Part shown: positions 781-22,514 of the stretch, piece by piece
How the letters are laid out: each line of letters starts with the position of its first letter
How positions within the stretch are numbered: position 1 is the stretch's first letter
Assembly: GCA_964493715.1 (NCBI GenBank)
Contig: CAZBPC010000039.1
Coordinates: 1 to 28,344, forward strand
DNA from: an uncultured archaeon
GTDB lineage: Archaea > Asgardarchaeota > Lokiarchaeia > Sigyniarchaeales > SOKP01
DNA length: 28,344 nt
Direction: 5' to 3'
Position numbers and translations under genes: made by a program
Notes under the pieces: model-generated
Database searches by the model: none
Told to the model about the DNA's origin: nothing
Seen by the model: only the letters and a program-made list of their open reading frames with translations

Positions 781-842
781 TATTTAAAATTAGCTCCTAA
801 TATTTAAAAAACACAATTAGCTATTAATCAAGGTGATATTTA

Positions 843-998
843 ATTAAATTAATCACGTGTCATGTTCCAGAAGCCTATCTGAAGGGAATCGAAGATCTTG
901 TCAACATGAATTTATATCCAAATCGTTCTGAAGTTATAAGAGTTGCAATAAGAGACCTGCTTAAAATTGAACTAAGTACACTCCTAAGAAAGGAATAA
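843..998 (+). CDS. Small ribbon-helix-helix (CopG/CdrS-like) transcription regulator, 51 aa, probable ATT start
   Basis: Translation (M)KLITCHVPEAYLKGIEDLVNMNLYPNRSEVIRVAIRDLLKIELSTLLRKE shows the RHH beta-strand and YPNRSE.IR.AIR signature. AGGTGA at 831-836 lies 6 nt before ATT; in-frame TGA at 834-836; T-run follows the stop. Confidence 0.85.
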   Translation: MKLITCHVPEAYLKGIEDLVNMNLYPNRSEVIRVAIRDLLKIELSTLLRKE

Positions 999-1074
999 TT
1001 TATTTCTTTTTTTCTCTATTTTATATTATGGTAATATGCATGTTATTCAGTGGGTCATAAAGAGGGCTATTTGA

Positions 1075-2049
1075 ATGATAGAAATCTTATTTTGGCTCTT
1101 CATCTTTTTTGCAAGTTATCTTCTTATATATTTTTCAGTGGATTTTTTTCTGGATAATTTGAAGAATTTATGTTTAATCCTTAAAATCTCACCATTCGTG
1201 ATTGGCTTATTAGTTTTAGGTATTGACCCGGAGGAATCCATCGCTTCAATCTTAGCCGCAATTAATGGACTTCCATTTATCGCGGTAGGGAATGTCATGG
1301 GGAATTCAATCATTTCCTTAACTTTGTGTTTTGCGCTTCCTGCACTCTTTCACGATATCGATTTAAAATCAATTTCAAATTTTTATTTTATCATCATATA
1401 TAGTTGCTTAGCTGCTATTTTGTTGAGTTTTCTTTTCTGTTTCGGTTTGTTCATTTTTGGTATTATTACTCTAATTATATATTTAATATATTTGCTAAAT
1501 TCACTAAATATCCTATCCAAAAAGAGAAGAATAGATCTTATTGATATGAATGAATTGGAAGAACAGATTAGAAGCGGGAATAAGGAAATTAATATTAAGT
1601 TTAAACTTAAGAAAATTATTTATATAATACTGGCATTTTGCTTGATACTAGTAGGCGGAGAATTCCTAATACTTTCGGCAGAGAATATCATGGTTTTAAC
1701 GGGATTAAGTGAGGCATTTTTTGGCTTTATTATCATTGCATTTGTCACTAATGCAGAAGAAATAACCCTCATCTTCAAATCAATTAAGAAAAAAAGTGTT
1801 GAAATTGGAATGGGAGCCATGATTGGAAAAGTAATATGGAATTTATCCTTTACATATGGAATTAGCGGAATCATTGCGATGGTAATAAATTTAAGCATGA
1901 TATTGATAGTGAATTGGTTATTCCTATTTGGCTTGATAATTTTTTACCAGGTTAAATCTAGAACTCATTCATTAACAAGAATGGATGCAGTTATATTATT
2001 GATAATTTTCATTGGATTTATTATCCTCACCACTCTTATTACAATTTAA
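1075..2049 (+). CDS. Sodium/calcium exchanger (CaCA, YrbG-like) membrane protein
   Basis: About 10 TM helices in two repeats, with divergent alpha-repeat motifs GIDPEE...VGNVMGNSI and VTNAEE...MGAMIGKVIWN. Confidence 0.8.
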   Translation: MIEILFWLFIFFASYLLIYFSVDFFLDNLKNLCLILKISPFVIGLLVLGIDPEESIASILAAINGLPFIAVGNVMGNSIISLTLCFALPALFHDIDLKSISNFYFIIIYSCLAAILLSFLFCFGLFIFGIITLIIYLIYLLNSLNILSKKRRIDLIDMNELEEQIRSGNKEINIKFKLKKIIYIILAFCLILVGGEFLILSAENIMVLTGLSEAFFGFIIIAFVTNAEEITLIFKSIKKKSVEIGMGAMIGKVIWNLSFTYGISGIIAMVINLSMILIVNWLFLFGLIIFYQVKSRTHSLTRMDAVILLIIFIGFIILTTLITI

Positions 2050-2104
2050 AAAAGTTGGAAATTAATGTTCAATCTTTTTATGTAATTTCATATTTTCCTT
2101 AATT

Positions 2105-2974
2105 ATGGTTTATACTCATCAAGACTTTAATTATATTGACTCGCATGTTCATTTCTTTCCTCCTAAACTATTTAAAGCAATTTGGGACTTTTTTGAGAAG
2201 CCTGATGATGATGGAAATCCCCGTGGGTGGTCGATCAAATATAAGTTAGAAATTGGGGACTTAGTTGAATTTCTAAAATCTGAAAAAGTAATATCCTTTA
2301 CAACGTATAATTACGCTCACAAGAAAGGAATTTCTGAACAAATAAATGAATGGACCTATCAATTCTGTAAAAGTAATCCTGAAGCAATTGCTTTTGGATG
2401 TGTTTGGCCTGGTGATGATAAAAAACTCGAGTATGTTCAAAAAATTATTGATACATATAATTTTCAAGGGCTCAAATTGCAGTTATTAGTCCAAGATTTT
2501 TATCCGCTTGATGAGCGAATGTTTGAAATTTATAATTTCATATTAGATAAAGGAAAATGGATTAATATGCACTGTGGTACTGCTCCTTACTCCAATAAGT
2601 TCGTAGGTTTCAAACATTTTACTAAATTTATTGAAAAGTTTCCGGATATAAATATAATAGTTGCCCATTTTGGGGCATATGAACATGAGAAATTTTTTAA
2701 ATTAATGGATAAGCACGAAAATTTGTATTTGGATACTGCAATGGTGTTCATTCCGTTCAAATTATTTGAGAAGTGGAATCGAGATATAGATTATCCAGAT
2801 AGAGAGTTACTTATATCATATCAAGATCGTATTCTTTACGGGAGTGATTTTCCTAATATACCATATGATTATGAGGTTTCTACGAAAGGATTATTGGATT
2901 TAGACTTAGATAAAAGCATATATGAAAAGATTTTTAGTGAAAATGCCAGAAAAATATTTAATATATCCAAATAA
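2105..2974 (+). CDS. Amidohydrolase family (Amidohydro_2-type) metal-dependent hydrolase
   Basis: Motifs IDSHVH, GLKL, MHCG, IVAHFG, LYLDTA and ILYGSDFP. Confidence 0.88.
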   Translation: MVYTHQDFNYIDSHVHFFPPKLFKAIWDFFEKPDDDGNPRGWSIKYKLEIGDLVEFLKSEKVISFTTYNYAHKKGISEQINEWTYQFCKSNPEAIAFGCVWPGDDKKLEYVQKIIDTYNFQGLKLQLLVQDFYPLDERMFEIYNFILDKGKWINMHCGTAPYSNKFVGFKHFTKFIEKFPDINIIVAHFGAYEHEKFFKLMDKHENLYLDTAMVFIPFKLFEKWNRDIDYPDRELLISYQDRILYGSDFPNIPYDYEVSTKGLLDLDLDKSIYEKIFSENARKIFNISK

Positions 2975-2985
2975 GAATTCAGGAA

Positions 2986-3888
2986 TTACAATATTGATAA
3001 ACTGAGGGTCATAACAAACATGCCAGTAATTATCCCCAAAATGGATATGTGTTCGTTTCCTAGTGATCTTGAAGCAGGTAATAGCTCATCCAATGAGATA
3101 TAGATCATTACACCAGCAACGATAGCAAGCATCGCACTTAATAAAAATGGGGTGATAAAGGGAGTTAGTACTATCCACGTAATAACGGCGCCTAAAGGTT
3201 CGCTCATCCCTGAAAGAAATGACCACTTAAACGCTTTTTTTTTACTTCCTGTACATGCATAGATAGGTATGGCTACGGCAATTCCCTCAGGAATATTGTG
3301 AAGTGCTATGGCTACCGCCAGAATAAACCCTAATTCAATTCTGGATATTGTTCCAATGTAGGTTGTCATTCCCTCAGGAAAGTTATGAATGAAGATTCCT
3401 AAAAATGTAAACATTGAGGTCTTTACTAGATTGATTTCAGATTTGCGACCACGCCCATCGTGAGGTTCAATTCCCGATCCATCTCTTGGTCCTAGACGAC
3501 GACCCCGTCGAAATCTATGCCTTTCATCTTTGGTTTTTTTATGATACAGGACATGGTGTGGATGAGGTTTGCAAGTTCCATTAACATTCATTAACATTTC
3601 TATTGAATCTTCGAACTCGTATTCATGAGAGACGAATACATCAATACCGAACATGATTAACATCCCCAAAAATAAAAATAGGGAACCTTCTAATAATCCT
3701 ATAGATTTAATGCTTTCTTGTAGTAATTCAACAAACGCTATCAGGATCATAACTCCTGCTGAAAATCCCATAATAAACGAAATGAATATTGGATTAGGTT
3801 TTTTCATAAAGAAAGCGACGAAGCTTCCTATTGTTGTTGATAAACCAGCTAATAAACTTAACAAAAGAGCAAGAATATAGGTTTCCAA
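2986..3888 (-). CDS. zupT: ZIP family divalent metal transporter (ZupT/GufA), TTG start
   Basis: Motifs GFSAGVM, IHNFPEG, IALHNIPEGIAVA, LSGMSEP and GVMIYISLDELLP; His/Arg-rich cytoplasmic loop. Confidence 0.92.
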   Translation of the reverse strand: METYILALLLSLLAGLSTTIGSFVAFFMKKPNPIFISFIMGFSAGVMILIAFVELLQESIKSIGLLEGSLFLFLGMLIMFGIDVFVSHEYEFEDSIEMLMNVNGTCKPHPHHVLYHKKTKDERHRFRRGRRLGPRDGSGIEPHDGRGRKSEINLVKTSMFTFLGIFIHNFPEGMTTYIGTISRIELGFILAVAIALHNIPEGIAVAIPIYACTGSKKKAFKWSFLSGMSEPLGAVITWIVLTPFITPFLLSAMLAIVAGVMIYISLDELLPASRSLGNEHISILGIITGMFVMTLSLSIL

Positions 3889-3934
3889 TTCATATTCTCC
3901 AAATTAGTTAATTTAGTAAAATTTAAAAATTATT

Positions 3935-3953
3935 AATTTAGACGATCCTAATT
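3935..3953. promoter_or_regulatory. Candidate DtxR/MntR-type metal-repressor box upstream of zupT
   Basis: aatTTAG-ACGATC-CTAAtt (TTAG-N6-CTAA), about 20-40 nt downstream of a minus-strand TTTATAT box at ~3972-3979. Confidence 0.45.
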
Positions 3954-4178
3954 AAATATTAGTTTTCAATAAATATAAAGATTTAGAAACATCAAAATAA
4001 TAAAATTAAGTTTTGATTTGACTAGTTTAAACATTAAAAATTATGTATGAGGAAAAATGATTAATCTAAAATAGAGAAAACTAAATTCAAACGAAATCTA
4101 TTAATATTTATAATACTAATTACTATAAATATGGAAATTCATTTTCTTAAATAAATTTATACTCCAAATATTAATATT

Positions 4179-5207
4179 ATGAAAGATTTAACCGAAATAG
4201 ATAAGCTCTTCTTTTTTGAAAAACACTTCTTTACTCTTGATGGATTGTGGATGATAGAGGCTGAGAAAAAGACGGATTGGGGCACCGCTTTAGAAATAGA
4301 TTTAAAAGTCTGGCTTAAGTTATTAAAAATTATATTTAAGAGACTTAAAAAATACCTCAATATTCTTGGAAATGATTTAATTGACTTACTTGAGATTCTC
4401 ACTTTTAGATGGACAGTAGAAGGTTGGAAATATGAGATCAGGAATGTGGATTCTAACAATGTATACATCAGCGTGAGAAGTTGTCCTTACAAATCCGCAA
4501 TGGACAGAAATCCTGAAAGGCATGATAAAATACCATTAATTTGCAATAATATGTGCAAGCCATTTTATCAAGAGATAGTCAAGGTTTTTAATCCTTTAAT
4601 ATCGTTAAAGAGGACTAAATTTATGGGTTTTAAAGCTGATGAATGCGATTTTCATTTTTCTATACCACCAACTCAAAATATTGATCAGGAGAAACTAAAG
4701 GAGAGGGTTCTAGATAAAAAAATACGGGATATAGATAAACTCTTCTATTTTGAGAAACATTTTCGTACTTTAGACGGATTATGGGTAATTGAAACTGAAA
4801 ATGAGATTGATTTTAATACCGCGTTGGATTTGGATATAATTGTATGGCAACGATTATATTCAATTATATTTCGGCGAGTAATTAAGTATCTAAAAATAAA
4901 TGACAATTCCCTTGAGGACTTAATTTCAATTCTTTCTTTTATTTGGAACTGCGAGGGAAATTTGCATGAAATTGTAAGACATAATAAGGAGGAAGTCCAA
5001 ATCAACATAACCGAGTGCCCCTATATCGACGCAATGAGGAGGAATCCTGAGAGACTCGATAAAATTGCTTCGATTTGCAAAGATATGTGCGTTCCTTATC
5101 TTGATCCTGTTATACAAGAATTTAATGAAAATATTAAGATAAAAAGAAATCAGTTTATGGGACTTGGAGATAATACTTGCGATTTCCATTTAACATTAAA
5201 AGAGTGA
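4179..5207 (+). CDS. Protein of two tandem DUF6125/V4R-like Cys-containing domains
   Basis: Internal duplication: IDKLFFFEKHFFTLDGLW / IDKLFYFEKHFRTLDGLW; CPYKSAMDRNPER / CPYIDAMRRNPER; CNNMCKP / CKDMCVP; CDFH twice. Confidence 0.75.
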   Translation: MKDLTEIDKLFFFEKHFFTLDGLWMIEAEKKTDWGTALEIDLKVWLKLLKIIFKRLKKYLNILGNDLIDLLEILTFRWTVEGWKYEIRNVDSNNVYISVRSCPYKSAMDRNPERHDKIPLICNNMCKPFYQEIVKVFNPLISLKRTKFMGFKADECDFHFSIPPTQNIDQEKLKERVLDKKIRDIDKLFYFEKHFRTLDGLWVIETENEIDFNTALDLDIIVWQRLYSIIFRRVIKYLKINDNSLEDLISILSFIWNCEGNLHEIVRHNKEEVQINITECPYIDAMRRNPERLDKIASICKDMCVPYLDPVIQEFNENIKIKRNQFMGLGDNTCDFHLTLKE

Positions 5208-5218
5208 GATGTTAAAAC

Positions 5219-7144
5219 CTAACAGCGAGGTGATCGTTTAATCCTTGTCCAACCTTGATCTAAAATGTAGTCATAATCTTTTTCATAAACACTATTAAAA
5301 TAAGAAATGTGTTCAGTTACAGTTGATAAAATTAATTCCTGTTCAGTTTTAGAAATAGAATAAATTTGAAATATGAGTTTATCCAATTCTCGTGTTGCAT
5401 AATGAGTGGTATCATCAAATTTCGCACCAGTTTGAGCTAAATAGTTTGAAATAAAATCAACTCGTTCGGATATCTCTTCTTTTATATCTTCTCCAGTTTT
5501 TTTAACTGGAAAATGTCGAATCATGTATTGATTTAAATTAATGGTAGTATCTTTTTGGTTATTTATTCCATATATACAATAAAATTGCATTAACGCTGAA
5601 TTTATTATTCCACAAAGATATTTCAATTCAGTTACATTTTCATTAAGTATCGAATATATTGAGGAAGTAAAACATACTTTCTTTTCAGTATAAATTGCTT
5701 GAGGAATAACATTATTATGCTTTATTAATAACTTGTGGTCATTATAATATTCATAATTTCTCCCTTTTAGGGTCTGAGGGCTAATTAATTCAAGATCAAA
5801 GGATTTTTTTGGTTTTATTGAATAATAATCAAAATCATCTTTTGCATTAATGAATAAACAAGTACCATTAGGATTATCTTTAACTATATGTCTGATCTCC
5901 TCCAATCCCTTGTCTTCTTCTCCTCGAATGAAATGTGGGAAATCAAGCGAATTTATATAGTTCAGATCTCCAATATCCTCAATCTTATTAATTAAATCTA
6001 GAACTTCATGATTTGTTTTAATCCGGATTCTGTTTAATTGTAGAGTTTCATTTTTGCATGAAGGGCAATATTTTTCTTTCGTATATGTATAAATCTTTTT
6101 TGATTTATTACTCGATGGACAGTCTGAACTTAGACAAATTCTTAATTCATCGAATGATTGGTTATTATATGTAATGATTTTATGATTTGGATAATCTAAG
6201 ACTTCTAAATTCTTTAGTTCTTTACCTTGATTTTGATAAATTAAGACTTGAGTTTCATTAGTCGCTTTCTTAAATAGGTTTGGACCAATGTCAATAATTT
6301 TTAGTAAATTTGCTTTTGATAAGAGAAGATTTCTAAATCTAACGTATCCTTGTCGTAACAAAAAACTTTTAGGCACTAAAAACCCAATCATTCCATTACT
6401 CCAATTTAATGCTTTCAAAATGAATAAACAATAGATATCATTAACAAAAACATTTTCATCACCTAATTTTTGCTTTAATGATTTGTTTAATATATTCCCA
6501 TAAGGGGGGTTCCCAACTAAAAGATCAAAATTCAAGGATGGAGGATCTTTAATGACATCTCTAACAGTAATATGAGACTCTAAAATAGAAATCAAATTAA
6601 GTAAATTTATTGATTTTTCTTCTGATAATCTTCGAAGCAATTTTAAAATGCAAAGTTTAAGGAAATAGTCATTTATATCATACCCATATATATTTTCAAT
6701 AATCCTCCTTTTGAAAGCCTCAAGTTCATCTCTAGTGCAAATATCTTCGAAGAGAGAAAAGATTATATCAATATAACTTAGAAGAAATACGCCTGAACCA
6801 CATGATGGATCACAAATCATCGTTTTATTCACTAAATTTAAAATAGATTTATATTCATTCTGAGTTAATGATTTAATTTCTGCTAAATTGGTTAAATTCA
6901 TTTTTTCAATTCTAGAATTAATGAATTCCGTGAGAGTTTGGGATATAATATAGTCAGCAATGTATTTTTGTGTAAAAAATACACCTTCATTTTTTCGTTT
7001 ATTATAATTTTGTAAAAAGATAAGCTCGATCTTATCAATTTGTTTTAAATTTTCATTTAAAATTACATTATTATCCGATCTTAAAGCTTTTCGGACAGAA
7101 CCATATAATTCAGAGAGAGACCGATTATTCGCCACATTCAACAT
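5219..7144 (-). CDS. N6-adenine DNA methyltransferase (TaqI/Eco57I-like gamma class), no adjacent endonuclease
   Basis: Motifs GVFFTQ, CDPSCGSGVFL (motif I), YGYDIN, LVGNPPYG (motif IV), GFLVPKSFL; TaqI-C-like YLCGIINS...LNQYMIRHFPV. Confidence 0.88.
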   Translation of the reverse strand: MLNVANNRSLSELYGSVRKALRSDNNVILNENLKQIDKIELIFLQNYNKRKNEGVFFTQKYIADYIISQTLTEFINSRIEKMNLTNLAEIKSLTQNEYKSILNLVNKTMICDPSCGSGVFLLSYIDIIFSLFEDICTRDELEAFKRRIIENIYGYDINDYFLKLCILKLLRRLSEEKSINLLNLISILESHITVRDVIKDPPSLNFDLLVGNPPYGNILNKSLKQKLGDENVFVNDIYCLFILKALNWSNGMIGFLVPKSFLLRQGYVRFRNLLLSKANLLKIIDIGPNLFKKATNETQVLIYQNQGKELKNLEVLDYPNHKIITYNNQSFDELRICLSSDCPSSNKSKKIYTYTKEKYCPSCKNETLQLNRIRIKTNHEVLDLINKIEDIGDLNYINSLDFPHFIRGEEDKGLEEIRHIVKDNPNGTCLFINAKDDFDYYSIKPKKSFDLELISPQTLKGRNYEYYNDHKLLIKHNNVIPQAIYTEKKVCFTSSIYSILNENVTELKYLCGIINSALMQFYCIYGINNQKDTTINLNQYMIRHFPVKKTGEDIKEEISERVDFISNYLAQTGAKFDDTTHYATRELDKLIFQIYSISKTEQELILSTVTEHISYFNSVYEKDYDYILDQGWTRIKRSPRC

Positions 7145-7223
7145 TTTAATGAGTAATTAAGCGACAGATTAATTGATATATTCTTTAGGTTTTTATAGGT
7201 AATATTATTTTATATATTAGAAG

Positions 7224-7718
7224 ATGACGGATAATCAAGAAGAAGATTATTATGGAGTTGCTCCAATAAAGCCAATTATTAAAAAAATGAAGAAAGATTA
7301 TGATAAAGATCCTAAAGGGTGGAGCGTAGTTGGATCTACTGATGATCACGGTAATTCAGATACAGTAATACTTAAAAATCCTAATAGTTTTTGGTTGAAA
7401 TCAAAAATGCTTAGTCCTTATTCAGCCTTATCCATGGGTTCAGTTATTAAAAATATTGATAAAGAAATTGATGATAGTATTGGGATCAAAAGAGAATTGT
7501 CTCCTAATGAGATGCTTCGATTATTCGGCATGGTAGTTCCTATTAAACCGGATAAGAATATTATCGCTACTGGAATCGAAAGATTTTCTCAAAATCAAGG
7601 AGATATCTTGAAAAAAGTAATATATGAGCAAAATCCTAATTTAGATTATCAACTTGCAAAAAGAATCGATGAAGAGTTTACTAAAAAATATCCACAGCGA
7701 AAAAATTTGTATATTTAA
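7224..7718 (+). CDS. Hypothetical protein (164 aa)
   Basis: ATG ORF with protein-like composition filling an intergenic slot; no family recognised. Confidence 0.75.
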   Translation: MTDNQEEDYYGVAPIKPIIKKMKKDYDKDPKGWSVVGSTDDHGNSDTVILKNPNSFWLKSKMLSPYSALSMGSVIKNIDKEIDDSIGIKRELSPNEMLRLFGMVVPIKPDKNIIATGIERFSQNQGDILKKVIYEQNPNLDYQLAKRIDEEFTKKYPQRKNLYI

Positions 7719-7744
7719 AGATAAAAGGTAATAGTAAATAAGGA

Positions 7745-8164
7745 CTATATTTTCCCTTTTAAAGTATCAATTTCTTCTTTTCCTTTAATAATGGGTAAAT
7801 TTGAAGAATAATTTGATGAATTTGTAATTAATTCAGCAATGAGAGCGATGATTTTTTCTGGACCGGATTTATTTTCAAGTGTTTTTGCAAAATCTTTAAT
7901 CAAGAGGACTTTTAAATCATCTACGTAGAAAGAAACGCCCTTTTCGACTTCTTCCATTAGGAATTGAAAAGATAATTCTGCTGATCTTTCAGTTTTTGCT
8001 AACGGTTCATTTGGATCTTCAAAGGTATATGATATTTCTGTCCAACGTGCTCCACTTGAATCAACGGGCACCATTCCAAAAATATAATCACTTGTATGCA
8101 ACCATATCGGAGTTCCATTATCATAAGAAGCATCAATAATAGCTTTCATTTCTTCACTCATCAT
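7745..8164 (-). CDS. Hypothetical protein (139 aa)
   Basis: ATG ORF preceded by AGTGA; protein-like composition; no family recognised. Confidence 0.75.
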   Translation of the reverse strand: MMSEEMKAIIDASYDNGTPIWLHTSDYIFGMVPVDSSGARWTEISYTFEDPNEPLAKTERSAELSFQFLMEEVEKGVSFYVDDLKVLLIKDFAKTLENKSGPEKIIALIAELITNSSNYSSNLPIIKGKEEIDTLKGKI

Positions 8165-10495: not shown

Positions 10496-10761
10496 CGAGA
10501 TTAGTTAAGAAGTTATTATTATTTTGTGTAATTTAATTCTATTTAAGAATTTAATAACATTTTACTAATTTATTTTTATGTAATATCCTCAATAAATCTA
10601 TTCACTATCCACTCCAAGATAGAAATGATACTCAAAAAATAAACTGAAACATTCTTGGAATGACTCGAAAAATTATTGATAAAATTAATAAAGTTCAAAT
10701 TTTACAATGGATTAATCAATCATATTAGATATATTGAATAAAAAACTAAGGTGTATATCAG

Positions 10762-11154
10762 ATTAGCAGAGCCGAGAAATGGGCTATTATTCATCTATTC
10801 AGCTCATATAATAATACCATAGTGACCGCAACCGATTTGAGTGGTGGCGAGACCTTCGCAAAATGCACTGGTGGAATGGTTGTAAAAGCAAGTAGAGATG
10901 AATCCAATCCGTATGCTGCGATGCAATGCGGATTTAGAGTAGCAAACGACATACGCGATAAGGGCATCACAGGTGTTCACATTAAGGTAAGGGCTCCAGG
11001 AGGAAACAAGAATACAACCCCTGGACCAGGAGCACAAGCATGCATAAGAGCACTTGCCCGTTCGGGCTTGAAAATCGGGCGTATAGAAGAAGTAACACCA
11101 AGATCTCACGACCACTGTCGCCGTAAGGGCGGTCATAGGGGACGACGTGTTTAA
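10762..11154 (+). CDS. rps11: 30S ribosomal protein uS11, 130 aa, probable ATT start
   Basis: The conserved N-terminus [17 protein letters not shown] lies upstream of the track's GTG (10822). TPGPGAQA and [11 protein letters not shown] present. In-frame TAA at 10747-49, AAGGTG at 10748-53, ATT at 10762. Confidence 0.93.
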
Positions 11155-11408
11155 AGAGCTTTTTTTATTATCTAATCTTTAGTTTAGCGGATATATCTCT
11201 TTGATTAAATTCTGTTCTCATCTCGCCATAAAAGTGCCAATCTTTCGAATTAAGCGTAAACGTAAACAGAAAAAATTATTACCGGTGGGAAGGAATGTAT
11301 TTGCGATTTTATCAAATTTAAACTCGGGAATGTTGGTTAACTTTTCATTTGTTTGTGGCTCAAATTTTTATTATTTCTGCTCTGAAATTTTCGAGGTTTG
11401 ATATTTTC

Positions 11409-11440
11409 TTGATATTAAAATCTTAAGATTTCAACATCAA
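11409..11440. repeat. Imperfect 32-bp palindrome upstream of the TA module
   Basis: ttgatattaAAATCTTAAGATTTcaacatcaa: 14 of 16 symmetric positions are complementary, with a perfect 14-bp core at 11418-11431. Confidence 0.55.
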
Positions 11441-11502
11441 TGGTGAGTTTCGATACATGTAATATCTCTATCCTCATCAAAAATATTAATATAGAAGAGA
11501 AG

Positions 11503-11524
11503 CTTTGTATACTAGTATACAAAG
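11503..11524. promoter_or_regulatory. Perfect 22-bp palindrome, probable antitoxin autoregulatory operator
   Basis: CTTTGTATACTAGTATACAAAG is its own reverse complement and contains two GTATAC hexamers. It lies between an AT-rich TATA-like stretch (~11482-93) and the SD at 11531. Confidence 0.7.
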
Positions 11525-11541
11525 AAAAAAAGGTGATTTTC

Positions 11542-11817
11542 ATTAGCACCGTACGAGTTGATAAGAGACATCTAAAATTATTGGATAAATTGATTTCACA
11601 TTTAACTTTAAGAGGAAAAAAAATAAGTAAAAAGGATCTTATTGCCAAATTGATTGAAGAGGCAATGACTGCAGAAGGTCTTGAAGAGAATGAATCCCCA
11701 GACTCAATAATCGATGATTATGCATGGAAAGGATTGGATAATGTTTTTGAGTTAGGTATTAAAGATTTATCAGAAAAAGTTGATGAAGTTTTATATCAAA
11801 TTAACGAGGAAGAATAG
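11542..11817 (+). CDS. Putative VapB-type antitoxin (RHH-like N-terminus, acidic C-terminus), 91 aa, probable ATT start
   Basis: (M)STVRVDKRHLKLLDKL...SKKDLIAKLIEEA; C-terminal DLSEKVDEVLY; abuts a PIN toxin; AGGTGA at 11531-36 lies 5 nt before ATT. In-frame GTG at 11533 and ATG at 11440 are alternatives. Confidence 0.72.
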   Translation: MSTVRVDKRHLKLLDKLISHLTLRGKKISKKDLIAKLIEEAMTAEGLEENESPDSIIDDYAWKGLDNVFELGIKDLSEKVDEVLYQINEEE

Positions 11818-12228
11818 ATGGTTGTTTTTTTAGATACGGGATTTATCTTAGCAGTTAAGAATAGGGATGATAAGAACTTTGAAATTGCTCAATCTTTGAT
11901 GAGACGGTTTCTAAAAAATGAATTTGGGGAAATTATTACCTCTACATTAGTATTTAATGAATTAGTAACTTTAGCGTTAGTAAGAATAAAACGTCCTGAT
12001 TTTGCGATAGAGATAGGTAACTATATTTTAAAAAGTAGAAAGATAAAATTGCTAAGTCTTACTGATGATGACTTTAAGAATTCTTGGGAGATATTTCAAA
12101 AATATAAGGAAAAAAGATTATCCTTTACCGATAGTTCCATTTTAACTCATTGCAAGCGACTAAACTGTAATTTTTTAGCTACTTTTGATAAGCATTTTAA
12201 AGGTTTAATACACTCGAATTTAAGTTAA
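11818..12228 (+). CDS. vapC: PIN-domain VapC toxin
   Basis: Motifs VFLDTGF, VFNELVT, LSFTDSS and LATFDKHF; starts immediately after the upstream stop codon. Confidence 0.9.
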   Translation: MVVFLDTGFILAVKNRDDKNFEIAQSLMRRFLKNEFGEIITSTLVFNELVTLALVRIKRPDFAIEIGNYILKSRKIKLLSLTDDDFKNSWEIFQKYKEKRLSFTDSSILTHCKRLNCNFLATFDKHFKGLIHSNLS

Positions 12229-12331
12229 ACTCAACGTGCCTTTTTAAGTAGTGAACACATATAGAAATAAATTACTATAATGTATTAGGATTTTCTTAAT
12301 GTTTTAACGTTTTAATCTTCAAGTTGCTCTC

Positions 12332-12789: not shown

Positions 12790-13299
12790 TTAATTCTTTG
12801 ATATTTCTTTTATTTGCGCGAATGGACTACTTGGAGCATATCTTATAAGATTTTCTTCATCTAATTTTACGATATAAGAAGGAGCGTTGATTAATTTATC
12901 TCCGATTGCGACATGTTTGTGAATTATCCTTTGTCGGGCTTCATATACCGTTTTAGTTAGACCTTTTTCAAACACGAGAGTTTGAAGCCTTCTCTTCAAG
13001 ATATCATCTACAGTGAGAAGAAGAACATCTTCAAATTGAGCTTCGGAACCAATAACACCGAGACGGTTTAATGTTCTGATTAGTTCTTGTTGAACTTTTT
13101 TTGCTTTTTCTTGTGGTAAGGATCTAGACTCACGTGCAATTTTTCTCCAATTACCCAAGACTGACCTCATCTTCCAGAATTCACGCTTATTTCGCAGACC
13201 ATACTTTCCGATAAATTCTAATTCTTCGGTAATTCGTTCCTTTTCAAAAGGATGTTTTGGTTTTTTGAACTTTTTCTTTAGACGACGTGGATCTCCCAT
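12790..13299 (-). CDS. rps4: 30S ribosomal protein uS4
   Basis: MGDPRR, YGLRNKRE, ILKRRLQTLV and ARQRIIHKHV; AGGTGA 6 nt upstream of the ATG. Confidence 0.97.
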   Translation of the reverse strand: MGDPRRLKKKFKKPKHPFEKERITEELEFIGKYGLRNKREFWKMRSVLGNWRKIARESRSLPQEKAKKVQQELIRTLNRLGVIGSEAQFEDVLLLTVDDILKRRLQTLVFEKGLTKTVYEARQRIIHKHVAIGDKLINAPSYIVKLDEENLIRYAPSSPFAQIKEISKN

Positions 13300-13309
13300 G
13301 ATATTTCAC

Positions 13310-13795
13310 CTAAGGTTGGCCTCTCTTTTTCCGCACGACTCCAATTACTAAGCCATGGCGGCCAGTGCTTTTAGTTCTTTGACCTCTTACTTTTAATTTA
13401 TTATGATGTCGAACACCTTTATAACTTCTTATTCGTTTCATGCGATCGATGTCTTGTTTTGTTTGTAAATCAAGAGAATTACCTAAAATATGTTTATCTT
13501 CACCAGTTCTCAAATCTTTTTTCCGATTAACCATCCAATATGGTATTCCGTTTTCAATTGGTTTCATCATGATTTCTTCAAGCTTATTGAGATCTTTCTC
13601 GGGTAAGGCGCCCATCCTCATTTGAGGGTCAATTTCAGCAATCCTTACTATAGCTTGAGCTAATCTTCTACCGACTCCACGAATTTGAGTTAACCCATAT
13701 TCTACTAGGGCATTTCCATCTATTTGAGAACGTAGATTTCTGAAGAAGATCTTTTCTCGAAAGTGTTTTGGTCTAAATGCAGGTAAAATACTCAT
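13310..13795 (-). CDS. rps13: 30S ribosomal protein uS13
   Basis: LTQIRGVGRR, IPYWMVNRKKD and SYKGVRH...KVRGQRTKSTGR. Confidence 0.97.
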   Translation of the reverse strand: MSILPAFRPKHFREKIFFRNLRSQIDGNALVEYGLTQIRGVGRRLAQAIVRIAEIDPQMRMGALPEKDLNKLEEIMMKPIENGIPYWMVNRKKDLRTGEDKHILGNSLDLQTKQDIDRMKRIRSYKGVRHHNKLKVRGQRTKSTGRHGLVIGVVRKKRGQP

Positions 13796-15442: not shown

Positions 15443-15490
15443 GATAATAATTTTATTTTAAATTACTGATCCGAATACCCGCGCTTAGGG

Positions 15491-15534
15491 TAAGTTACCT
15501 TTCAACTATAATTTTTTTGAAAGGCTCATTCTAC
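15491..15534 (-). promoter_or_regulatory. Candidate SECIS-like element at the mvhD stop / 3' UTR
   Basis: mRNA GUAG-A-AUGA-GCCUUUCAA-[AAAAAUUAUAG]-UUGAAAGGU-AAC-UUAC: AUGA, a 9-bp helix and an A-rich apical loop. The 3' side has AA where the eukaryotic consensus has GA. Confidence 0.55.
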
Positions 15535-15956
15535 TTCGGGTTTAATTTATATTTTGGCAAGGGAGGCAATGCACGGACTTTACTAGTTATATCTTCTACT
15601 GAAGCCACAAACTTTTCTACTTCTGCAGCAGCACAGAAATACTGTTGAATCCTATCTTCATTTATTCCAATATGATTAAACAGATTTTTTAGAAATATGA
15701 CGTGTTTATTAGTATTCATATTAGCTCTACCATAATCACATTCATCCTCATGGCATGATATTATTGCTACTCCGTCTGCACCTCGTAGAAAACTATCCAT
15801 TATCAAATGAATCCCAATTCTTCCAGTACATCTTACACGAATCAAATGAAAGTCAGTTGAATATTTTTTACGAGTCGTTCCAGTCAAATCAGCAACAGAA
15901 TAGCCTCACTTTTCACAACCAAATGCTATAATCTTTCTTTCTTTAGTAGTATCCAT
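15531..15956 (-). CDS. mvhD: Hydrogenase [2Fe-2S] delta subunit MvhD/VhuD, selenoprotein (UGA at 15906-15908, codon 17), 141 aa
   Basis: MDTTKERKIIAFGCEK*GYSVADLTG matches the MvhD CxxC-x-Y-xx-AD motif; also IRVRCTGRI, GADGV and CHEDECDY. Alternative ATG at 15965. Confidence 0.9.
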
Positions 15957-15975
15957 CTTAATCATAACTATAAGT

Positions 15976-17973
15976 TTATTCTTGGATTTTTTCTTGAGAT
16001 GCACTCATCATTGAGATAAAGGATTCTGTAATTCCCCTTATTTCTTCTTCAAATTGAGAATCCCTGTAATATATGAGATCGATTGCTCTAGCAGGACATG
16101 AGGTAACACAAGCTCCACACCCTTTACATTTTAATTCATCTACTACTGCTATTTGATCGTCATTTACATTAATTGCATCAAAATCACAAATCTTCTCACA
16201 TCTGTGACATCCTACACAGATTGTATTATCTACTTCTGCGATGATTAATTCTTGTCTTAAAACATCATTTGACAGTAGAGTTGCCGCTTTGCTAGCTGCT
16301 CCCAAAGCTGAAGTTACTGAATATGGTATGTTCTTGGGACCTGCCGCACACCCACAGATATAAATGCCATTATTTTTTGTTTCAACAGGTTTTAAACACC
16401 CATGAACTTCTGATAAAAAGCCATTTGGGCCCCTACTAAGACCCATTATTTCAGAAAGTTCAATAGTACCTTGAGAAGGGATTATTCCAGTCGATAAGAC
16501 AACAAGATCAAAATCCATGCTCATAACTTCGCTTTCCATTGTTGTATCAAAATATAAACGCATCGTACCATTATCATTTAATTTAATATCTCCAGGTTTA
16601 CCTTTGATAAAAATAATATTTTGACCACGTATATTTCTATAATATTCCTCATTCCCTTTATCCCAAGTTCTAATATCAATATAAAATATAGTAATATTCG
16701 TGGTGGGATATTCTTGTTTTAATAATTGAGCATTCTTCAGGGCAACATTACAGCACACCGCACTGCAATAAGAATTTCCTCTTAAAGTCCTTGATCCAAC
16801 ACATTGTATCATCGCAATATTTTTGGGCGTTTTTCCATCTGATATTCGGTACACATGTCCGCTCGTTGGACCTATAGGGCTTAGCATTCTTTCCAATTCA
16901 AGTTGAGTGATTACATCTGGATATAAACCATACTTGTATTCATTTGTTTTGAGTATTGGATATTCTTCCCACCCTGTAGCAACAATTACCGCACCAACTT
17001 TAATTTCAATTTGTTGTTCTCCTTGATCAAATGCTATTGCTTCAGCTGGACAAATACGTTCACAATTCTTACAATCAATGCATACAGACTTATCCAGAAC
17101 GGCAAATTTCGGAACAGCTTGTGGAAAGGGGATATATATAGCATTTCTCTCTCCAATTCCTCTATTAAATTCATCTGGTATATTTATAGGACATTTCGTG
17201 GTACATAATCCACATCCAGTGCATTTTTGTTCATCGACATATCTAGGATTTTTTCTGACTTTCACGAGAAATTCGCCTGTCACCCCAGTAAATTGGATAA
17301 TATCAGAATACGTCATTAATGTAATATTTGGGTGTTTGGATGCATTTACCATAATGGGAGCTAATACTCAGATACCACAATCATCGGTTGGAAATATTCT
17401 ATCAAGTTGAGCCATTTTTCCTCCAATTGTAGGGGATTTTTCAACTAAGTATACTTCAATTCCTTGATTTGCTAAATCTAATGCTGCATTCATTCCCGCT
17501 ATACCCGCTCCTATCACAAGAGCAGTTTTTGTTATTGGTATTTCTTTACGGGGGATTATTTCTAATTGTCTTGCTCTATTTATCCCTGCTAATAATAATC
17601 TTTTGGCTTTCTCAGTTGCTACGATTTTATCTCCTTGATGTACAAATGAACAATGCTCTCGAATATTTACCATTTCAAAATAATATGGGCTCAAACCAGC
17701 TTCAATCAAGACCGATCTGTAAGTATCTTCATGAATTTTCGGAGTACAAGCTGCTACTACCACTCGATTTAGGTCTAATTCTATGATATCATTTTTAATA
17801 GATTGTTGTCCAGGATCACTGCAAGTAAATTTGTTTATCCTTGCAATCACAACATTAGGTAATAGTTCCGCATAATCTCGTATGGATAAACAATCAATGT
17901 GCATTCCAATATTTACGCCTCACTCGCATACATAAACTCCAATTCTTGGTTCATTGGTCTGTTTCTCAGACAT
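15976..17973 (-). CDS. hdrA: Heterodisulfide reductase subunit A, selenoprotein with two in-frame UGA (codons 18 and 202), 665 aa
   Basis: One reading frame from ATG 17973 (AGGTGA 5 nt upstream): RIGVYVCE*GVNI (TGA 17920-22) and FPTDDCGI*VLAP (TGA 17368-70). Also VIGAGIAG, CTGCGLC, QCVGSR, YCSAVCC and a C-terminal ferredoxin. Confidence 0.93.
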
Positions 17974-18200
17974 TGTTTTCACCTTACTGAAGTATCACCT
18001 TATTATGCATTTTCATTTTTTGATCTTAAGTTGTGAAGTGTGAGAATTAATTTATTTTTTCTGTTTAATTTCAACAATCCTCAGATCCTTTTCGGCACTA
18101 TAATGATCAATAAAAATATTTTGCAAATAGTGTTTTATTCAAAAATATCTAAATCGAATCCGACCAAGTTTTTTATTTTAAACATTATTATCAAAATTAT

Positions 18201-18386
18201 ATGTTGACGAACGATAAAAATAACAAAGAAGAGTTTGCAAAAAAATTCATGGAAGAAGAAGGCTTAAAAGGAAAAGCAAAACGAATTAAAATAATTCAAA
18301 TTATAAACTCAGTCGGTTTTGATAAGCGAATGATAAAAGTAGCCCTTCAAAGGTCAACTATTGATGAAAGAATTAAACACGAGTAA
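18201..18386 (+). CDS. Small hypothetical protein (61 aa)
   Basis: ATG ORF with charged, protein-like sequence upstream of serS. Confidence 0.6.
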   Translation: MLTNDKNNKEEFAKKFMEEEGLKGKAKRIKIIQIINSVGFDKRMIKVALQRSTIDERIKHE

Positions 18387-18478
18387 GTTTTCGATTATTA
18401 AGATATTTCTAAAAATAATTCAAAATGAATTTAAGACATTAATAATTAATACTTTCATCAAAACAAGAGGACATTACC

Positions 18479-19783
18479 TTGCTTGATATAGAATTATTTC
18501 GAAGTAATTTAAACGAAATTATCGAATCAGAAAAAAAAAGATTTAAAGATCCTTCGAATGCTAAAATGGTAATAGAATACGACGTCAAATGGAGAGAGGT
18601 ATTACAGAATCTGGAAGAACTTAAAAAACAGAGAAATAAGCTATCTGCACAAATAGGAAAATTCACTAAATCTGGAGAGAAGGAGAAAGCTGAAAAAATA
18701 AAACATCAATCTAAGGAAATTAAAGAGAAATTAGACGGTTTAGAAAAGTCAAAGGACACATTTTATGAATTAAGAGAAAAATTTAGATATAAAGTGGGCA
18801 ATATTTTACATAAATCAGTACCGGTGGGTGAAAGTGAAGAAAGTAATGAGATTATTTCTATCAAGGGTGATATACCTAATTTTAAATTCAAACCCAAATC
18901 ACATGTAGATTTGGTTGAATTAATTGACGGTGTAGATACGAAAAAAGCAGCAGAAATCGTGGGTTCTAGATTTTTTTATTTGAAAGGTGATCTCGTTTTG
19001 TTAAACTTTGCTCTAATGAGATTTGCGTTAGATAAGCTAATCAGTAAAGGATTCACTCCCATATGGACACCTTTCTTTGTAAAATATGAAATAATTAAAG
19101 CAGCAGCAGAATTAGCAGATTTTGAAGAGCAATTGTATAAAATTCAAGGGGAAGACTTGTATTTGATTGCTACCTCTGAACAATCACTAGCAGGTTATCA
19201 TTATGATGAAATTATTGAATCTGAAAGGTTACCGATTAAGTATGCAGGAACTTCAACGTGTTTTAGGCGAGAAGCAGGGTCACATGGAAAAGATACGTTA
19301 GGTATATTTAGGGTTCATCAATTTGAGAAAGTAGAACAATTTGTTTTATGCAAACCAGAAGAATCTTGGGGTGTTTTTGAAGAATTAATTAGTAATGCTG
19401 AAGAAATTTATAGTGATTTGAAAATTCCTTATCGAATTGTGAATATAGCATCAGGAGAATTAAATGATAATGCCGCTAAGAAATATGATCTCGAATGTAT
19501 TTTTCCAGCATCGGGAAAATATCGTGAACTAGTATCTTGCAGCAACTGTACAGACTATCAAGCAAGAAAGCTAAAGATTAGAATGGGAAAGGTTGGTACC
19601 CAACAAGAAAAAGAGATATTACACACTTTAAATTGTACAACAATCGCTACGGAGCGTACAATTTGTTGTATATTAGAGAATTATCAAAATGAGGATCATT
19701 CAATTACAATTCCAGATGTTCTCCAAAAATATATGAATGGAAAAAAAAAAATTGCACCAGTATCTCCATCAAAAAACAATTAA
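18479..19783 (+). CDS. serS: Serine--tRNA ligase (type 1), TTG start
   Basis: MLDIELFR, N-terminal coiled-coil arm, LIATSEQ, CFRREAGSHG, RVHQFEKVEQF and ELVSCSNCTDYQAR. Confidence 0.97.
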   Translation: MLDIELFRSNLNEIIESEKKRFKDPSNAKMVIEYDVKWREVLQNLEELKKQRNKLSAQIGKFTKSGEKEKAEKIKHQSKEIKEKLDGLEKSKDTFYELREKFRYKVGNILHKSVPVGESEESNEIISIKGDIPNFKFKPKSHVDLVELIDGVDTKKAAEIVGSRFFYLKGDLVLLNFALMRFALDKLISKGFTPIWTPFFVKYEIIKAAAELADFEEQLYKIQGEDLYLIATSEQSLAGYHYDEIIESERLPIKYAGTSTCFRREAGSHGKDTLGIFRVHQFEKVEQFVLCKPEESWGVFEELISNAEEIYSDLKIPYRIVNIASGELNDNAAKKYDLECIFPASGKYRELVSCSNCTDYQARKLKIRMGKVGTQQEKEILHTLNCTTIATERTICCILENYQNEDHSITIPDVLQKYMNGKKKIAPVSPSKNN

Positions 19784-19806
19784 TATAAATAAACCTAAAT
19801 ATAATC

Positions 19807-21039
19807 ATGATCGAAGTATCTTTAGACGAATTTGAGGTTTTTTATAAAGAAAAACTTGATAATTTATTCTTTAAAGTAAAAAGAGCAGTGACCAAATTAC
19901 TAGAGGAAGTTAAAACAAATTTAATTGAAATAAAAGTGTGTATGGATCATTTTATCGAAGCTGGAGAGGAACGAATTGAGGATAAGGCTCAAAGATCAGT
20001 ACATTTCTTTTCTGATAAAATAAGGAAGGAAATTGATGAAATTCAGATTCCAGAAGAAGAAATGAATTTCGATAAGATCTCTATTTTATTAAATTCACTC
20101 ACTAAACTATTTACAAGTATTAATGAAATTGCACGAAAATCATTACCAAAGTTTCAAAAAGAAGTGCAAGCTGAAATTAAAGAACTAAACTATATCACTC
20201 GGAAATTAGGAAAAAAGAAAGGCACGTTAGATGTATTCATGAGTAAAAAGTATGGTGATCTAAAAGAAGCTGAAGGATTGCTCAAAAAGATGCCTAAAAT
20301 ATTTACATTAAGGGAAAACATTGAGCATTCAAAAGAAGATCTTGATGCATTTGAAAAAGAATTAGAGGAACGAAATAAAAATCAAGAAAATTTAACTGAA
20401 CAATTAATTATTTTGGAAAAAAATGATCTCTTGAAAGAATTAGAAGAACATAGGGATTCTTTATTTAAATTACGAATGAAAATCAATGATAAGCTAGGGT
20501 TCAAGAAATCGCTAAAGAAGATGAAATTTGAGCTGGAAAAGGGTACGATTCATGTGCCAAATGTTGATTTAACCTATATAAAAGACTTTCTTAAAGACTC
20601 AATCACAACCTTGAGTAATGAGACAAAAGATCTCACCCGATTTTCCAGTTTATTGATTCAGCTACGACATATTTTAGAAGAAAATAAATTAAATCTTAAA
20701 ACCGAAACAAAAGAGAAGACTATTGAACAAATTAATCAGATCTTTGAAGAAAAAGAAATATATCAGGACATTGAAGAACTTAAAGAACTGAATCAAACCA
20801 TAAGAGAATTAGAAGAAAAGATTAAAGCTGCAGGTATAGCTTCACAGTTGGAGGATCTCAAAAACCAAATTTCAATTAATACTGTAAAATTGGAACACCT
20901 ACAAAATGATATTGAGAGAAAAAATAAAGATTATTTAAGAAATTTAAATTTTCTGAAAGATGAAAGAGAAGATTTTCAACAATTAGTAAGTAATGTTATT
21001 GGTGAAGAAGTAAAAGTTCTTATAACGTTTTCTTTTTAA
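19807..21039 (+). CDS. Hypothetical coiled-coil protein (410 aa)
   Basis: Long ORF with E/K/L-rich heptad patterns; no catalytic motif seen. Confidence 0.8.
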   Translation: MIEVSLDEFEVFYKEKLDNLFFKVKRAVTKLLEEVKTNLIEIKVCMDHFIEAGEERIEDKAQRSVHFFSDKIRKEIDEIQIPEEEMNFDKISILLNSLTKLFTSINEIARKSLPKFQKEVQAEIKELNYITRKLGKKKGTLDVFMSKKYGDLKEAEGLLKKMPKIFTLRENIEHSKEDLDAFEKELEERNKNQENLTEQLIILEKNDLLKELEEHRDSLFKLRMKINDKLGFKKSLKKMKFELEKGTIHVPNVDLTYIKDFLKDSITTLSNETKDLTRFSSLLIQLRHILEENKLNLKTETKEKTIEQINQIFEEKEIYQDIEELKELNQTIRELEEKIKAAGIASQLEDLKNQISINTVKLEHLQNDIERKNKDYLRNLNFLKDEREDFQQLVSNVIGEEVKVLITFSF

Positions 21040-21776
21040 CAATTGGGTTTTTTAGTCCTCTTTATTTCTAGCTTTCTGTTATCTAGAGAGTTTTTTTTAG
21101 TAATCTCTAAATTAATATTCTTTTTGAGGAAGCTATAAGTCTCGCTCTTGACAAGATTAAAAGCTTTCAAATACTCATAAGCTAACATCAAGTCGTGTTT
21201 TATATCTATATCAAATCCAGCTCTAAAAGAATCATATATAGCAGTTTTTAATCCACGACTATCAGCTTCATTTAATAATGCAATTAGAGATGGTGTTGAG
21301 GGATGAGAGAAATAAGTTGGAATAATCCCCGGCGGATTTCTACCCAATATTGAGATTCCTGCTGAAATTATCGCGGGGCATATAACTAATTGATTTTGCT
21401 TGATTAGATTTACTATCTCCCTTAGATTTTTTGGAGTAATTAATATGAGATCTGAAAATATGAGTATTGTATTCTTAGCGTGATAATCTTGAATTGCAAC
21501 AGAGTTAATGTCTTGTAAGATATCATCAAAACATTTTTCTATCGCACTAATATTTTCTTTTATTGGAATAAATCCTTGTTCTTCTGTCAAATCTAATATT
21601 TCAGAGCTATTACAATATACAAGAGTCTTTATCTGTAATTTTGTTCGCGATATTTTAGAAAATAAATCCTTTAACATTGCAATCGTGAGATTAATTAATT
21701 GCTCTCGAGAGAATATGCCTTCTAATCGGGATTTAGTTTTAGAAAGTGGTGCTACTGGGATTAATAAAATACTCAT
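21036..21776 (-). CDS. cofC: 2-phospho-L-lactate / PEP guanylyltransferase (F420 biosynthesis)
   Basis: LIPVAPLSKTKSRL, AMLKD, IFSDLILI and FDIDIKHDL match CofC motifs in divergent form. Confidence 0.72.
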   Translation of the reverse strand: MSILLIPVAPLSKTKSRLEGIFSREQLINLTIAMLKDLFSKISRTKLQIKTLVYCNSSEILDLTEEQGFIPIKENISAIEKCFDDILQDINSVAIQDYHAKNTILIFSDLILITPKNLREIVNLIKQNQLVICPAIISAGISILGRNPPGIIPTYFSHPSTPSLIALLNEADSRGLKTAIYDSFRAGFDIDIKHDLMLAYEYLKAFNLVKSETYSFLKKNINLEITKKNSLDNRKLEIKRTKKPNC

Positions 21777-21873
21777 TTTTATGATGTGTTAGATTGATAT
21801 TTGAAAGCGATGTGACAATGAGAATAATAAAAAATCATGTAATAAATAGTTTGATTTAATTCCAAGATTGAGT

Positions 21874-22437
21874 TTATTTTATCCCTTCCAAGATTTTTAT
21901 GGCTAATAATTCAAACGCTTTATTGACATTCATATCTTTTTTAGCAGAAGTTTCGATGTATTCAACCCCATATTTTGCTGTGAATTTTTTTCCTTCTTGT
22001 TCGGAAACTTTCCGTACTGCTGATTTATCCAATTTATTTCCTATAATTACGAAAGGAACATCACCACTGAGTTCCTTCAATTTTGATATCCAAAATTCTA
22101 AATTATCAAATGATTTTTTGTTTGAAATATCAAATATGACCATAGCTCCAAGAGCTTGGATAAAATAATATTCATTAGCAAATAGTTTGTCTGTTTGTCC
22201 ACCTATATCCCAAAAGTAGAGTTTAAATCCTTTTTCGTAAATATCACTTTCTAATTCAGGGTTTTTAAATTTTAACTTGCTGAGTATTTTACTTAGATCA
22301 ATTTCTTTTATAAGGAAGTTGGCACCAATGGTTTGATGATAATCTTCGCTAAAATTACCATCCACATATCGAGATAATAAACTGGTCTTCCCTACTCCTG
22401 GTTGACCACAAAATACTACTTTTCCCCGATATGAAAT
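21874..22437 (-). CDS. Rab/Ras-like small GTPase, 187 aa, probable ATT start
   Basis: The P-loop KVVFCGQPGVGKTS lies upstream of the track's start (22365). Also TIGANF, WDIGGQ, GNKLD and ETSAK. In-frame TGA at 22441-43, GGGGTG at 22444-49, ATT at 22437-35. Confidence 0.9.
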   Translation of the reverse strand: MSYRGKVVFCGQPGVGKTSLLSRYVDGNFSEDYHQTIGANFLIKEIDLSKILSKLKFKNPELESDIYEKGFKLYFWDIGGQTDKLFANEYYFIQALGAMVIFDISNKKSFDNLEFWISKLKELSGDVPFVIIGNKLDKSAVRKVSEQEGKKFTAKYGVEYIETSAKKDMNVNKAFELLAIKILEGIK

Positions 22438-22514
22438 TTGTCACACCCCAGATTAATATTATTTAACATTATTACGTTCAATTTAAACTTTTAATTTTTT
22501 TATATGATTTTGGA

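Follow-up and report, generated by a model that had tools for sequence, protein, structure and literature searches.

Probable initiation at AUU, AUA and AUC codons in a Loki-type Asgard archaeon, with a conserved ATT or ATC start on the aIF1 gene

The question raised by four ATT codons

Can ordinary archaeal genes begin with AUU, and if four of them do so on a single contig, how many others follow in the rest of the genome? This question is raised by the window analysed here, a stretch of 28,344 nucleotides (nt) making up the entire contig CAZBPC010000039.1 (C39) of an uncultured Promethearchaeota (Loki-type Asgard) genome. In an earlier note, four genes of this window were proposed to start at an ATT codon placed behind a Shine–Dalgarno (SD) box, and SD-guided AUU initiation was taken to be routine in the lineage. 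Our analysis indicates that these four genes, and others in the order of 50–150 within the 3.7-Mb genome, very probably start at AUU, AUA or AUC. This reading is supported by homology-defined N-termini, by the alignment of ATG with ATH codons (ATT, ATA or ATC) among orthologues, by a genome-wide excess of ATH at SD spacing, by a negative control and by independent assemblies.

The genome carrying the window (G000; other G numbers are genomes of relatives) was assembled into 160 contigs totalling 3.68 Mb, at 31% GC; its completeness is rated at 100% and its contamination at 3.85%. The 3' end of its 16S rRNA, GGATCACCTCC, is encoded on contig C23, and GGTG-type boxes are complementary to it. The four genes and their boxes, followed by two comparators, are as follows.

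831–836, + strand: SD box AGGTGA of the RHH gene, able to pair with the 16S 3' end; an in-frame TGA (834–836) lies within the box, 3 codons before ATT
843–998, + strand: RHH (CopG-type) regulator gene; ATT at 843–845, 6 nt after the SD box; 51 codons and a stop
10749–10754, + strand: SD box AGGTGT of rps11; 5-nt SD match, aligned spacing 7
10762–11154, + strand: rps11 (ribosomal protein S11) gene; ATT at 10762–10764, 7 nt after the SD box; 130 codons; in-frame TAA at 10747–10749, 5 codons upstream
11531–11536, + strand: SD box AGGTGA of the antitoxin gene, 5 nt before ATT
11542–11817, + strand: antitoxin gene; ATT at 11542–11544; adjoins a PIN-like open reading frame (ORF) at 11818–12228
22443–22448, − strand: SD box GGGTGT of the GTPase gene, 5 nt before ATT
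21874–22437, − strand: Ras/Rab-like small GTPase gene; ATT at 22437–22435; 187 codons; in-frame TGA at 22443–22441, 2 codons upstream
13297–13311, − strand: comparator rps4, AGGTGA-6nt-ATG
17971–17984, − strand: comparator hdrA, AGGTGA-5nt-ATG

The observations of the earlier note on these sites stand. All four ATT codons (843, 10762, 11542 and 22437) follow GGTG-type boxes at the positions and spacings claimed, and the spacing is that of ATG genes, both comparators holding. In-frame stops, said to precede the RHH, rps11 and GTPase starts by 2–5 codons, were found at 3, 5 and 2 codons respectively, and in these three genes no canonical codon (ATG, GTG or TTG) stands between the stop and the conserved N-terminal sequence. 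Serine is the second residue in three of the four.

A genome-wide excess of ATH codons at Shine–Dalgarno spacing

The genome-wide count took in codons that are reached from an in-frame stop without passing a canonical codon and after which the frame stays open for at least 100 codons. With GGTG at 5–8 nt, the 237 sites comprised 60 ATG, 10 GTG, 19 TTG, 26 ATT, 9 ATC and 23 ATA, while other codons were represented by AAT (0), TAT (2), TTT (5) and AAA (16). With GGTG at 13–19 nt, ATT, ATC and ATA accounted for 8, 2 and 12 of 200 sites.

A stricter test required a match of at least 5 nt to GGAGGTGATCC, used the aligned spacing and allowed no canonical codon in the next three codons. At spacing 5–7, G000 yielded 200 canonical, 62 ATH and 116 other codons, compared with 42 ATH and 297 other codons at spacing 12–16 (odds ratio 3.8, p = 3e-9). 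The excess amounts to about 46 ATH codons, or 19% of SD-led starts, and lies at spacing 5–7, with ATG peaking at 4–7. AT-rich control triplets were not enriched at 5–7 versus 12–16 (AAT 8 vs 21, TTT 9 vs 20, TTA 5 vs 15). Widening the spacing to 4–8 gives 74 ATH candidates, comprising 34 ATT, 28 ATA and 12 ATC. The tally suggested in the earlier note thus came out in favour of ATH starts, with a change of wording: SD-guided initiation is supported, but it involves AUA and AUC as well as AUU, and 'routinely' describes about a fifth of strongly SD-led starts but only a few per cent of all genes.

As a negative control we used pSOL1 of Clostridium acetobutylicum, an SD-rich replicon of 192 kb and 31% GC. 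It gave 25 canonical, 1 ATH and 14 other codons on-spacing, with 5 ATH and 27 other codons off-spacing (odds ratio 0.39, p = 0.92). AT-richness alone is therefore insufficient, since pSOL1 has no ATH excess. The strict test was positive in relatives of G000, with odds ratios of 3.6 (p = 0.01) for two genomes of the same genus (775 kb), 3.0 (p = 0.019) for G024 and 6.4 (p = 0.002) for G026, which belongs to another family. An apparent absence of the habit from G026 in the GGTG-only test was overturned by the wider SD definition, and no limit to the genus is therefore claimed. Among the genomes examined, starting at ATH appears to be at least order-wide.

Serine occupies the second position in 14 of 74 ATH candidates and in 31 of 196 SD-led canonical starts, compared with 1178 of 15856 residues following internal ATH codons (p = 0.001). 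As the rate in ATH candidates resembles that of canonical starts, serine is a general N-terminal signature of this genome and not specific to ATT. An expectation-maximization (EM) start-site model with free start-codon weights, assigning 4.9% to ATT, 1.4% to ATC and 1.2% to ATA, was also tried and set aside as too noisy for counting.

These data suggest a simple mechanism. Pairing of the SD box with the 16S 3' end (GGAGGUGAUCC) would position the small subunit with AUH (AUU, AUA or AUC) 5–7 nt behind the A of GGUGA, the spacing being the same as for AUG. The initiator Met-tRNA would then pair with the first two bases while a third-position mismatch is tolerated, and a strong SD could offset the weak codon.

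Alternatively, AUH might be read by a special decoding device, either an initiator tRNA whose wobble base is modified or replaced, as with f5C34 in mitochondria, or an Ile-accepting initiator placing isoleucine first. The codon spectrum speaks for such a device: all three ATH codons are enriched but CTG (4 vs 2 at spacing 5–7 vs 12–16) and ACG (4 vs 3) are not, so that tolerance is confined to the third position. Yet we consider it unlikely, as nothing positive points to it, ATG, GTG and TTG still outnumber ATH by 200 to 62, and the swapping of ATG for ATH at a given site between closely related species, described below, needs no new tRNA.

Tolerant SD-led initiation by the ordinary initiator also has to be weighed against the idea that AUH serves only re-initiation, at low codon stringency, by ribosomes that have just reached the end of an upstream gene. 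The atpD start would suit this idea, being located 2–3 codons past the atpB stop, which itself lies inside GAGGTGTAA. However, rps11 is preceded by some 265 nt without an ORF on the same strand, spacers of about 185 nt and 78 nt precede the RHH and GTPase genes, and the aIF1 genes discussed below have a conserved AT-rich block about 70 nt upstream and no upstream gene end. Re-initiation as the sole use of AUH is thus very improbable.

N-termini defined by domains and orthologues

Read from ATT, the proteins carry these Pfam domains: RHH_1 at residues 4–41 (profile positions 2–38 of 39), Ribosomal_S11 at residues 9–126 (positions 2–110) and Ras at residues 6–183 (positions 1–161), whereas Pfam gave no match for the antitoxin. 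The first downstream canonical codons are located 21 (RHH), 20 (S11) and 24 (GTPase) codons in, within these domains, that of the GTPase being a GTG at 22365, downstream of the P-loop. Public gene calls use such downstream starts, which would make the ATH codons meaningless or the genes decaying. This view is hardly credible: because the domains begin upstream, it would strip the GTPase of its P-loop, S11 of its first strand and the RHH fold of one half. The GTPase residues that would be skipped, such as SYRGKV..CG, are kept across the genus, and neither the spacing-specific ATH excess nor a second-residue bias like that of real N-termini would be expected.

The same holds beyond the window. 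Among ten ATH-led ORFs submitted to Pfam, the domain begins before the first canonical codon in seven (RHH, S11, the window GTPase, PorA, AtpD, TrmB and a GTPase on contig C16). In NifU (ATT-TAT-AGT), profile position 2 falls on residue 2, directly adjoining ATT, and DeoC is neutral. NifU, PorA, AtpD and TrmB appear from their sequences to be further well-defined ATH-led cases.

Comparison with relatives, covering up to 17 species of the genus, aligns the four window ATTs with ATG in orthologues of other species and answers the call of the earlier note to inspect the orthologous codon. In rps11, the codon aligned with ATT-AGC is ATG (10) or TTG (1), followed by AGT, at 11 loci of the same genus, and ATG at all 11 loci of other families; near-identical public S11 proteins begin MSRVEKW or MSRDEKW. 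The RHH gene has ATT (3), ATA (7) or TTG (3) in the genus including G000, with two more loci lacking an N-terminal alignment, and ATG in five genomes of other families. Orthologues of the antitoxin share the N-terminus M-S-T-[IV]-R and read ATA-AGT-ACC in G005 and G016, ATG-AGT-ACG in G006 and ATG at five loci of other families.

The GTPase starts with ATT (9), ATA (2) or ATG (6) in the genus, one further locus being cut by a contig end. In relatives, the open frame extends back through a GTG within the SD box, and pipelines call [M/V]LQISYRGK; in G000, the TGA shuts this GTG off. At position 22442 (+ strand), other salt-marsh runs carry C>A, turning TGA into TTA on the gene strand and opening the frame to the GTG inside the SD box, in keeping with the proteins called in relatives. 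As the gene stays intact with either TGA or TTA, this variation points to ATT as its working start.

Two further genes illustrate opposite fates of an ATH codon. AtpD, which has ATA in G000, starts with ATT at 10 of 16 same-genus loci (ATG at 3, unclear at 3) and with ATG (8) or GTG (1) at nine loci of other families; an ATH start can therefore stay stable over many species. The PorA start turns over: relatives use ATG (7), GTG (6) or TTG (3), with one unclear, and a 9-nt difference between G000 and its closest relative leaves ATT at SD spacing. As relatives have ATG, TTG or GTG there, the ATTs of rps11 and PorA are specific to this species. ATG, ATT and ATA thus exchange freely at orthologous start positions in this order.

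An error of sequencing or consensus converting ATG into ATT can practically be dismissed, for although the window was compared with contigs assembled from other runs rather than with raw reads, all three ATH codons are present, independent genomes spanning up to 48 species carry the same ATH codons, and the contig of an independent run shows no difference over 10860–12272, thus covering the ATT at 11542.

How many genes start at ATH

Of 2013 clear canonical starts, no more than 196 (9.7%) have an SD of the strict type, and the SD-based count of ATH starts is therefore a floor. An SD-independent sample was drawn from 2662 ORFs of at least 150 codons: in 66, the first canonical codon stands at least 35 codons in, and 20 of these 66 were sampled. 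A Pfam domain begins before the first canonical codon in seven of the 20, namely the C16 GTPase, GDPD, an ATP-grasp protein of the succinyl-CoA-synthetase type, a Fer4/CCG protein, an IorA-type POR_N protein, a GTPase on contig C30 and a TPP_enzyme_C protein. One more ORF has its P-loop at residues 41–48 and its first canonical codon at 105. A plausible ATH behind a full or partial SD is present in seven of these eight; the TPP protein has none.

Of all coding codons, 4.2% are canonical, which gives an ATH-led gene a chance of about 22% of running for 35 codons without one. With this rate, the sample scales to roughly 100 genes or more. A rough estimate of the total is about 50–150 ATH-led genes, or 2–5%. 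The 40 ORFs whose first canonical start lies 10–34 codons in were judged by eye and left out of the counts.

The TPP protein deserves a separate word. Its gene, of the 2-oxoacid:ferredoxin oxidoreductase beta type, lies on contig C53 (− strand, offset 20392) with TPP_enzyme_C from residue 41. Neither a canonical nor an ATH codon is present between the upstream TGA and the Cys motif, and an out-of-frame ATG overlaps the TGA. This arrangement could reflect a frameshift, an ACG start or an indel of the assembly.

A conserved ATT or ATC start on the aIF1 gene

The earlier note had also advised a look at aIF1 for unusual features, and its gene proved to carry one.

Contig C23, about 30187–30519 (locus L169:1459–1791), − strand: aIF1 (SUI1-family) gene; ATT at L169 1791–1789; in-frame TGA 3 codons upstream

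In G000 and 12 other genomes of the genus, all 13 with ATT, the gene begins ...AGGTTGTGA AAA AAG AGT ATT AAA GAC..., with the stop 3 codons before ATT and the stretch ahead of the Cys knuckle free of canonical codons. Of 80 loci taken from genomes of named species, the 48 closest begin without exception at ATT (45) or ATC (3) and lack any canonical codon past the in-frame stop, whereas ATG predominates in Asgard archaea further removed and in other archaea. Within the order, the aligned codon is ATA in genus g5, TTG in genus g2 and ATG in G029 and the GC-richer family f4. The box AGGT(T)GTGA and the motif AT[T/C]AAA are invariant in 41 different sequences, and the 9-nt spacer varies. Prediction gave no conserved RNA structure at the SD and ATT, the sole hairpin being weak and located in the coding sequence. 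In the protein alignment, whose columns were taken without mapping to a structure, no clade-specific change stood out at invariant columns.

The gene of a fidelity factor thus itself carries a conserved weak start. Such an AUU or AUC start could feed back on start-codon stringency, as the start of infC does in bacteria. Going further, we tentatively suggest, rating the idea at somewhat below even chances, that aIF1 limits its own synthesis through this codon and so keeps stringency permissive. The few per cent of genes on AUU, AUA or AUC (GTPases, regulators, V-ATPase D, oxidoreductases and even S11) would then respond together to the level of aIF1.

Points weighing against the reading

Several observations weigh against ATH codons as starts in regular use. 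In the counts, 14 of the 58 GGTG-led ATH sites have ATG, GTG or TTG one or two codons later and are probably spacer and not starts. The size of the excess varies with the definition of the SD, GGTG alone giving 3 ATH against 22 canonical codons in G026, and the spacing tests of relatives are small samples from kin, hence not independent. The EM model assigned about 2% each to the noise codons TTT, TCT and TCA.

Others concern individual genes. The species-specific ATTs of rps11 and PorA have arisen recently and may be slightly deleterious instead of 'used'. The antitoxin frame holds alternatives upstream, a GTG at 11533 within the SD box and an ATG at 11440. Among the variants listed between runs (40 of 725), none falls on the three ATTs at 10762, 11542 and 22437, of which only 11542 is positively covered.

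The initiator tRNA is the last of these points. No CAT-anticodon tRNA or tRNA-Met was found in G000 with ARAGORN (with or without introns), the Rfam tRNA model or two motif searches, nor was an initiator tRNA found with ARAGORN in 1.6 Mb of relatives' DNA. The assembly is uninformative on this matter.

As an observation in its own right, G000 has only 26–27 detectable tRNA genes, many of them with introns, despite its 100% completeness rating.

Public annotation

The expectation that gene callers truncate such genes is borne out by the public collection, which for this genome holds S11 only as a 110-aa GTG form and the GTPase only as a 163-aa form, both stored without their ATT-led N-termini. 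By exact look-up, neither the ATT form of its aIF1 nor the 56-aa TTG form is present. Public aIF1 proteins of relatives, 13 of which were examined, are heterogeneous. Five NCBI entries ('stress response translation initiation inhibitor YciH') begin MKDD[DE]IC, corresponding to the ATT start, four are truncated (70–91 aa) and three begin MW... (P0022, P0025 and P0029). The latter arise because the upstream TTG-TGA is read as Met-Trp, the pipeline having applied a TGA=Trp code to AT-rich contigs. The NCBI pipeline therefore already uses the aIF1 ATT in places, without comment. In a search outside of which most subscription journals and supplements lay, no publication was found on AUH starts in Asgard archaea or on AUU on an archaeal aIF1 gene.

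Comparison with known systems

Mitochondria and Mollicutes (NCBI tables 2, 4 and 5) initiate at AUH, and NCBI table 11 lists ATT, ATC and ATA as rare starts. Like the genome studied here, these are AT-rich genomes accepting AUU, AUA and AUC; they have changed codes or tRNA modifications, no sign of which was seen in the present data. In eukaryotes, Ivanov and colleagues reportedly described in 2010 an autoregulation of eIF1 through the poor context of its own AUG. The factors are homologous (SUI1 family) and both genes have a weak start site, but eIF1 limits its own synthesis by a weak context whereas the aIF1 gene has a weak codon.

In bacteria, infC uses its AUU for feedback (PMC4705826). 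One study states that such a start is confirmed in E. coli for infC and pcnB alone, and that AUA, AUC and AUU give 1–2% of the AUG level (10.1101/063800). The archaeal genes resemble infC and pcnB in having a near-cognate AUU behind an SD, and infC in that the gene of the fidelity factor itself has the weak codon. They differ in that dozens of ordinary genes, and AUA and AUC too, would be involved, that aIF1 with its SUI1 fold is unrelated to IF3, and that feedback is here only conjectured.

Closer to the present case, the 30S complex of Sulfolobus solfataricus in vitro binds both AUG and AUU mRNAs without aIF1 and only AUG mRNAs with it (PMC4705826; PMC6237735). This is the same factor family as the gene starting here at ATT, although the Sulfolobus work concerns a crenarchaeon and model mRNAs and, in the portions available to us, reports neither natural AUU-led archaeal genes nor AUU on the aIF1 gene. 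N-terminomics of Deinococcus deserti uncovered more non-canonical starts than annotated (PMC2830850, as far as the accessible text goes). The likeness lies in a prokaryote with non-canonical starts beyond its annotation, D. deserti being a bacterium.

Neighbouring features and possibly recoded stops

Two further features of the window and a related ORF elsewhere were noted. The first lies next to the antitoxin gene.

11503–11524, no strand assigned: palindrome CTTTGTATACTAGTATACAAAG, 22 nt, just upstream of the antitoxin SD box

Its core is kept as TGTATACTAGTATACA in G005 and as TGTATATTAGTATACA in G006. The palindrome is likely an operator for autoregulation of the antitoxin/PIN-toxin pair.

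The second is hdrA (15976–17973, − strand), whose frame appears to run through two in-frame TGA codons, the second at codon 202, beside the ORF 15976–17352. With TGA read as selenocysteine (U), the N-terminus is MSEKQTNEPRIGVYVCEUGVNIG, and a tRNA-Sec gene is located on contig C26. These TGA codons are likely selenocysteine sites. Elsewhere in G000, a SelD-like ORF begins SCKLSSDQLNELL directly after a stop codon, which may be a selenocysteine codon, with the gene extending further upstream.

Concluding remarks

The scale of AUH use, and an AUH start on aIF1 itself, in the archaeal lineage nearest to eukaryotes give this case its interest. Asgard metagenome proteomes feed ideas on the origin of eukaryotes, and a Ras-like GTPase deprived of its P-loop, an S11 deprived of its first strand or the aIF1 of many pipelines, cut short or lengthened by a TGA taken as Trp, distorts family searches, trees and structure predictions.

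The apparent tolerance of a third-position mismatch, together with the conserved AUU of aIF1, makes start-codon stringency directly testable in this lineage, Loki-type archaea being now in culture. Genes with weak starts could be tuned as one set. If the aIF1 feedback is true, it would represent a third independent case of a fidelity factor governed in this way, after IF3 in bacteria and eIF1 in eukaryotes, and it would be found in the closest archaeal relatives of eukaryotes.

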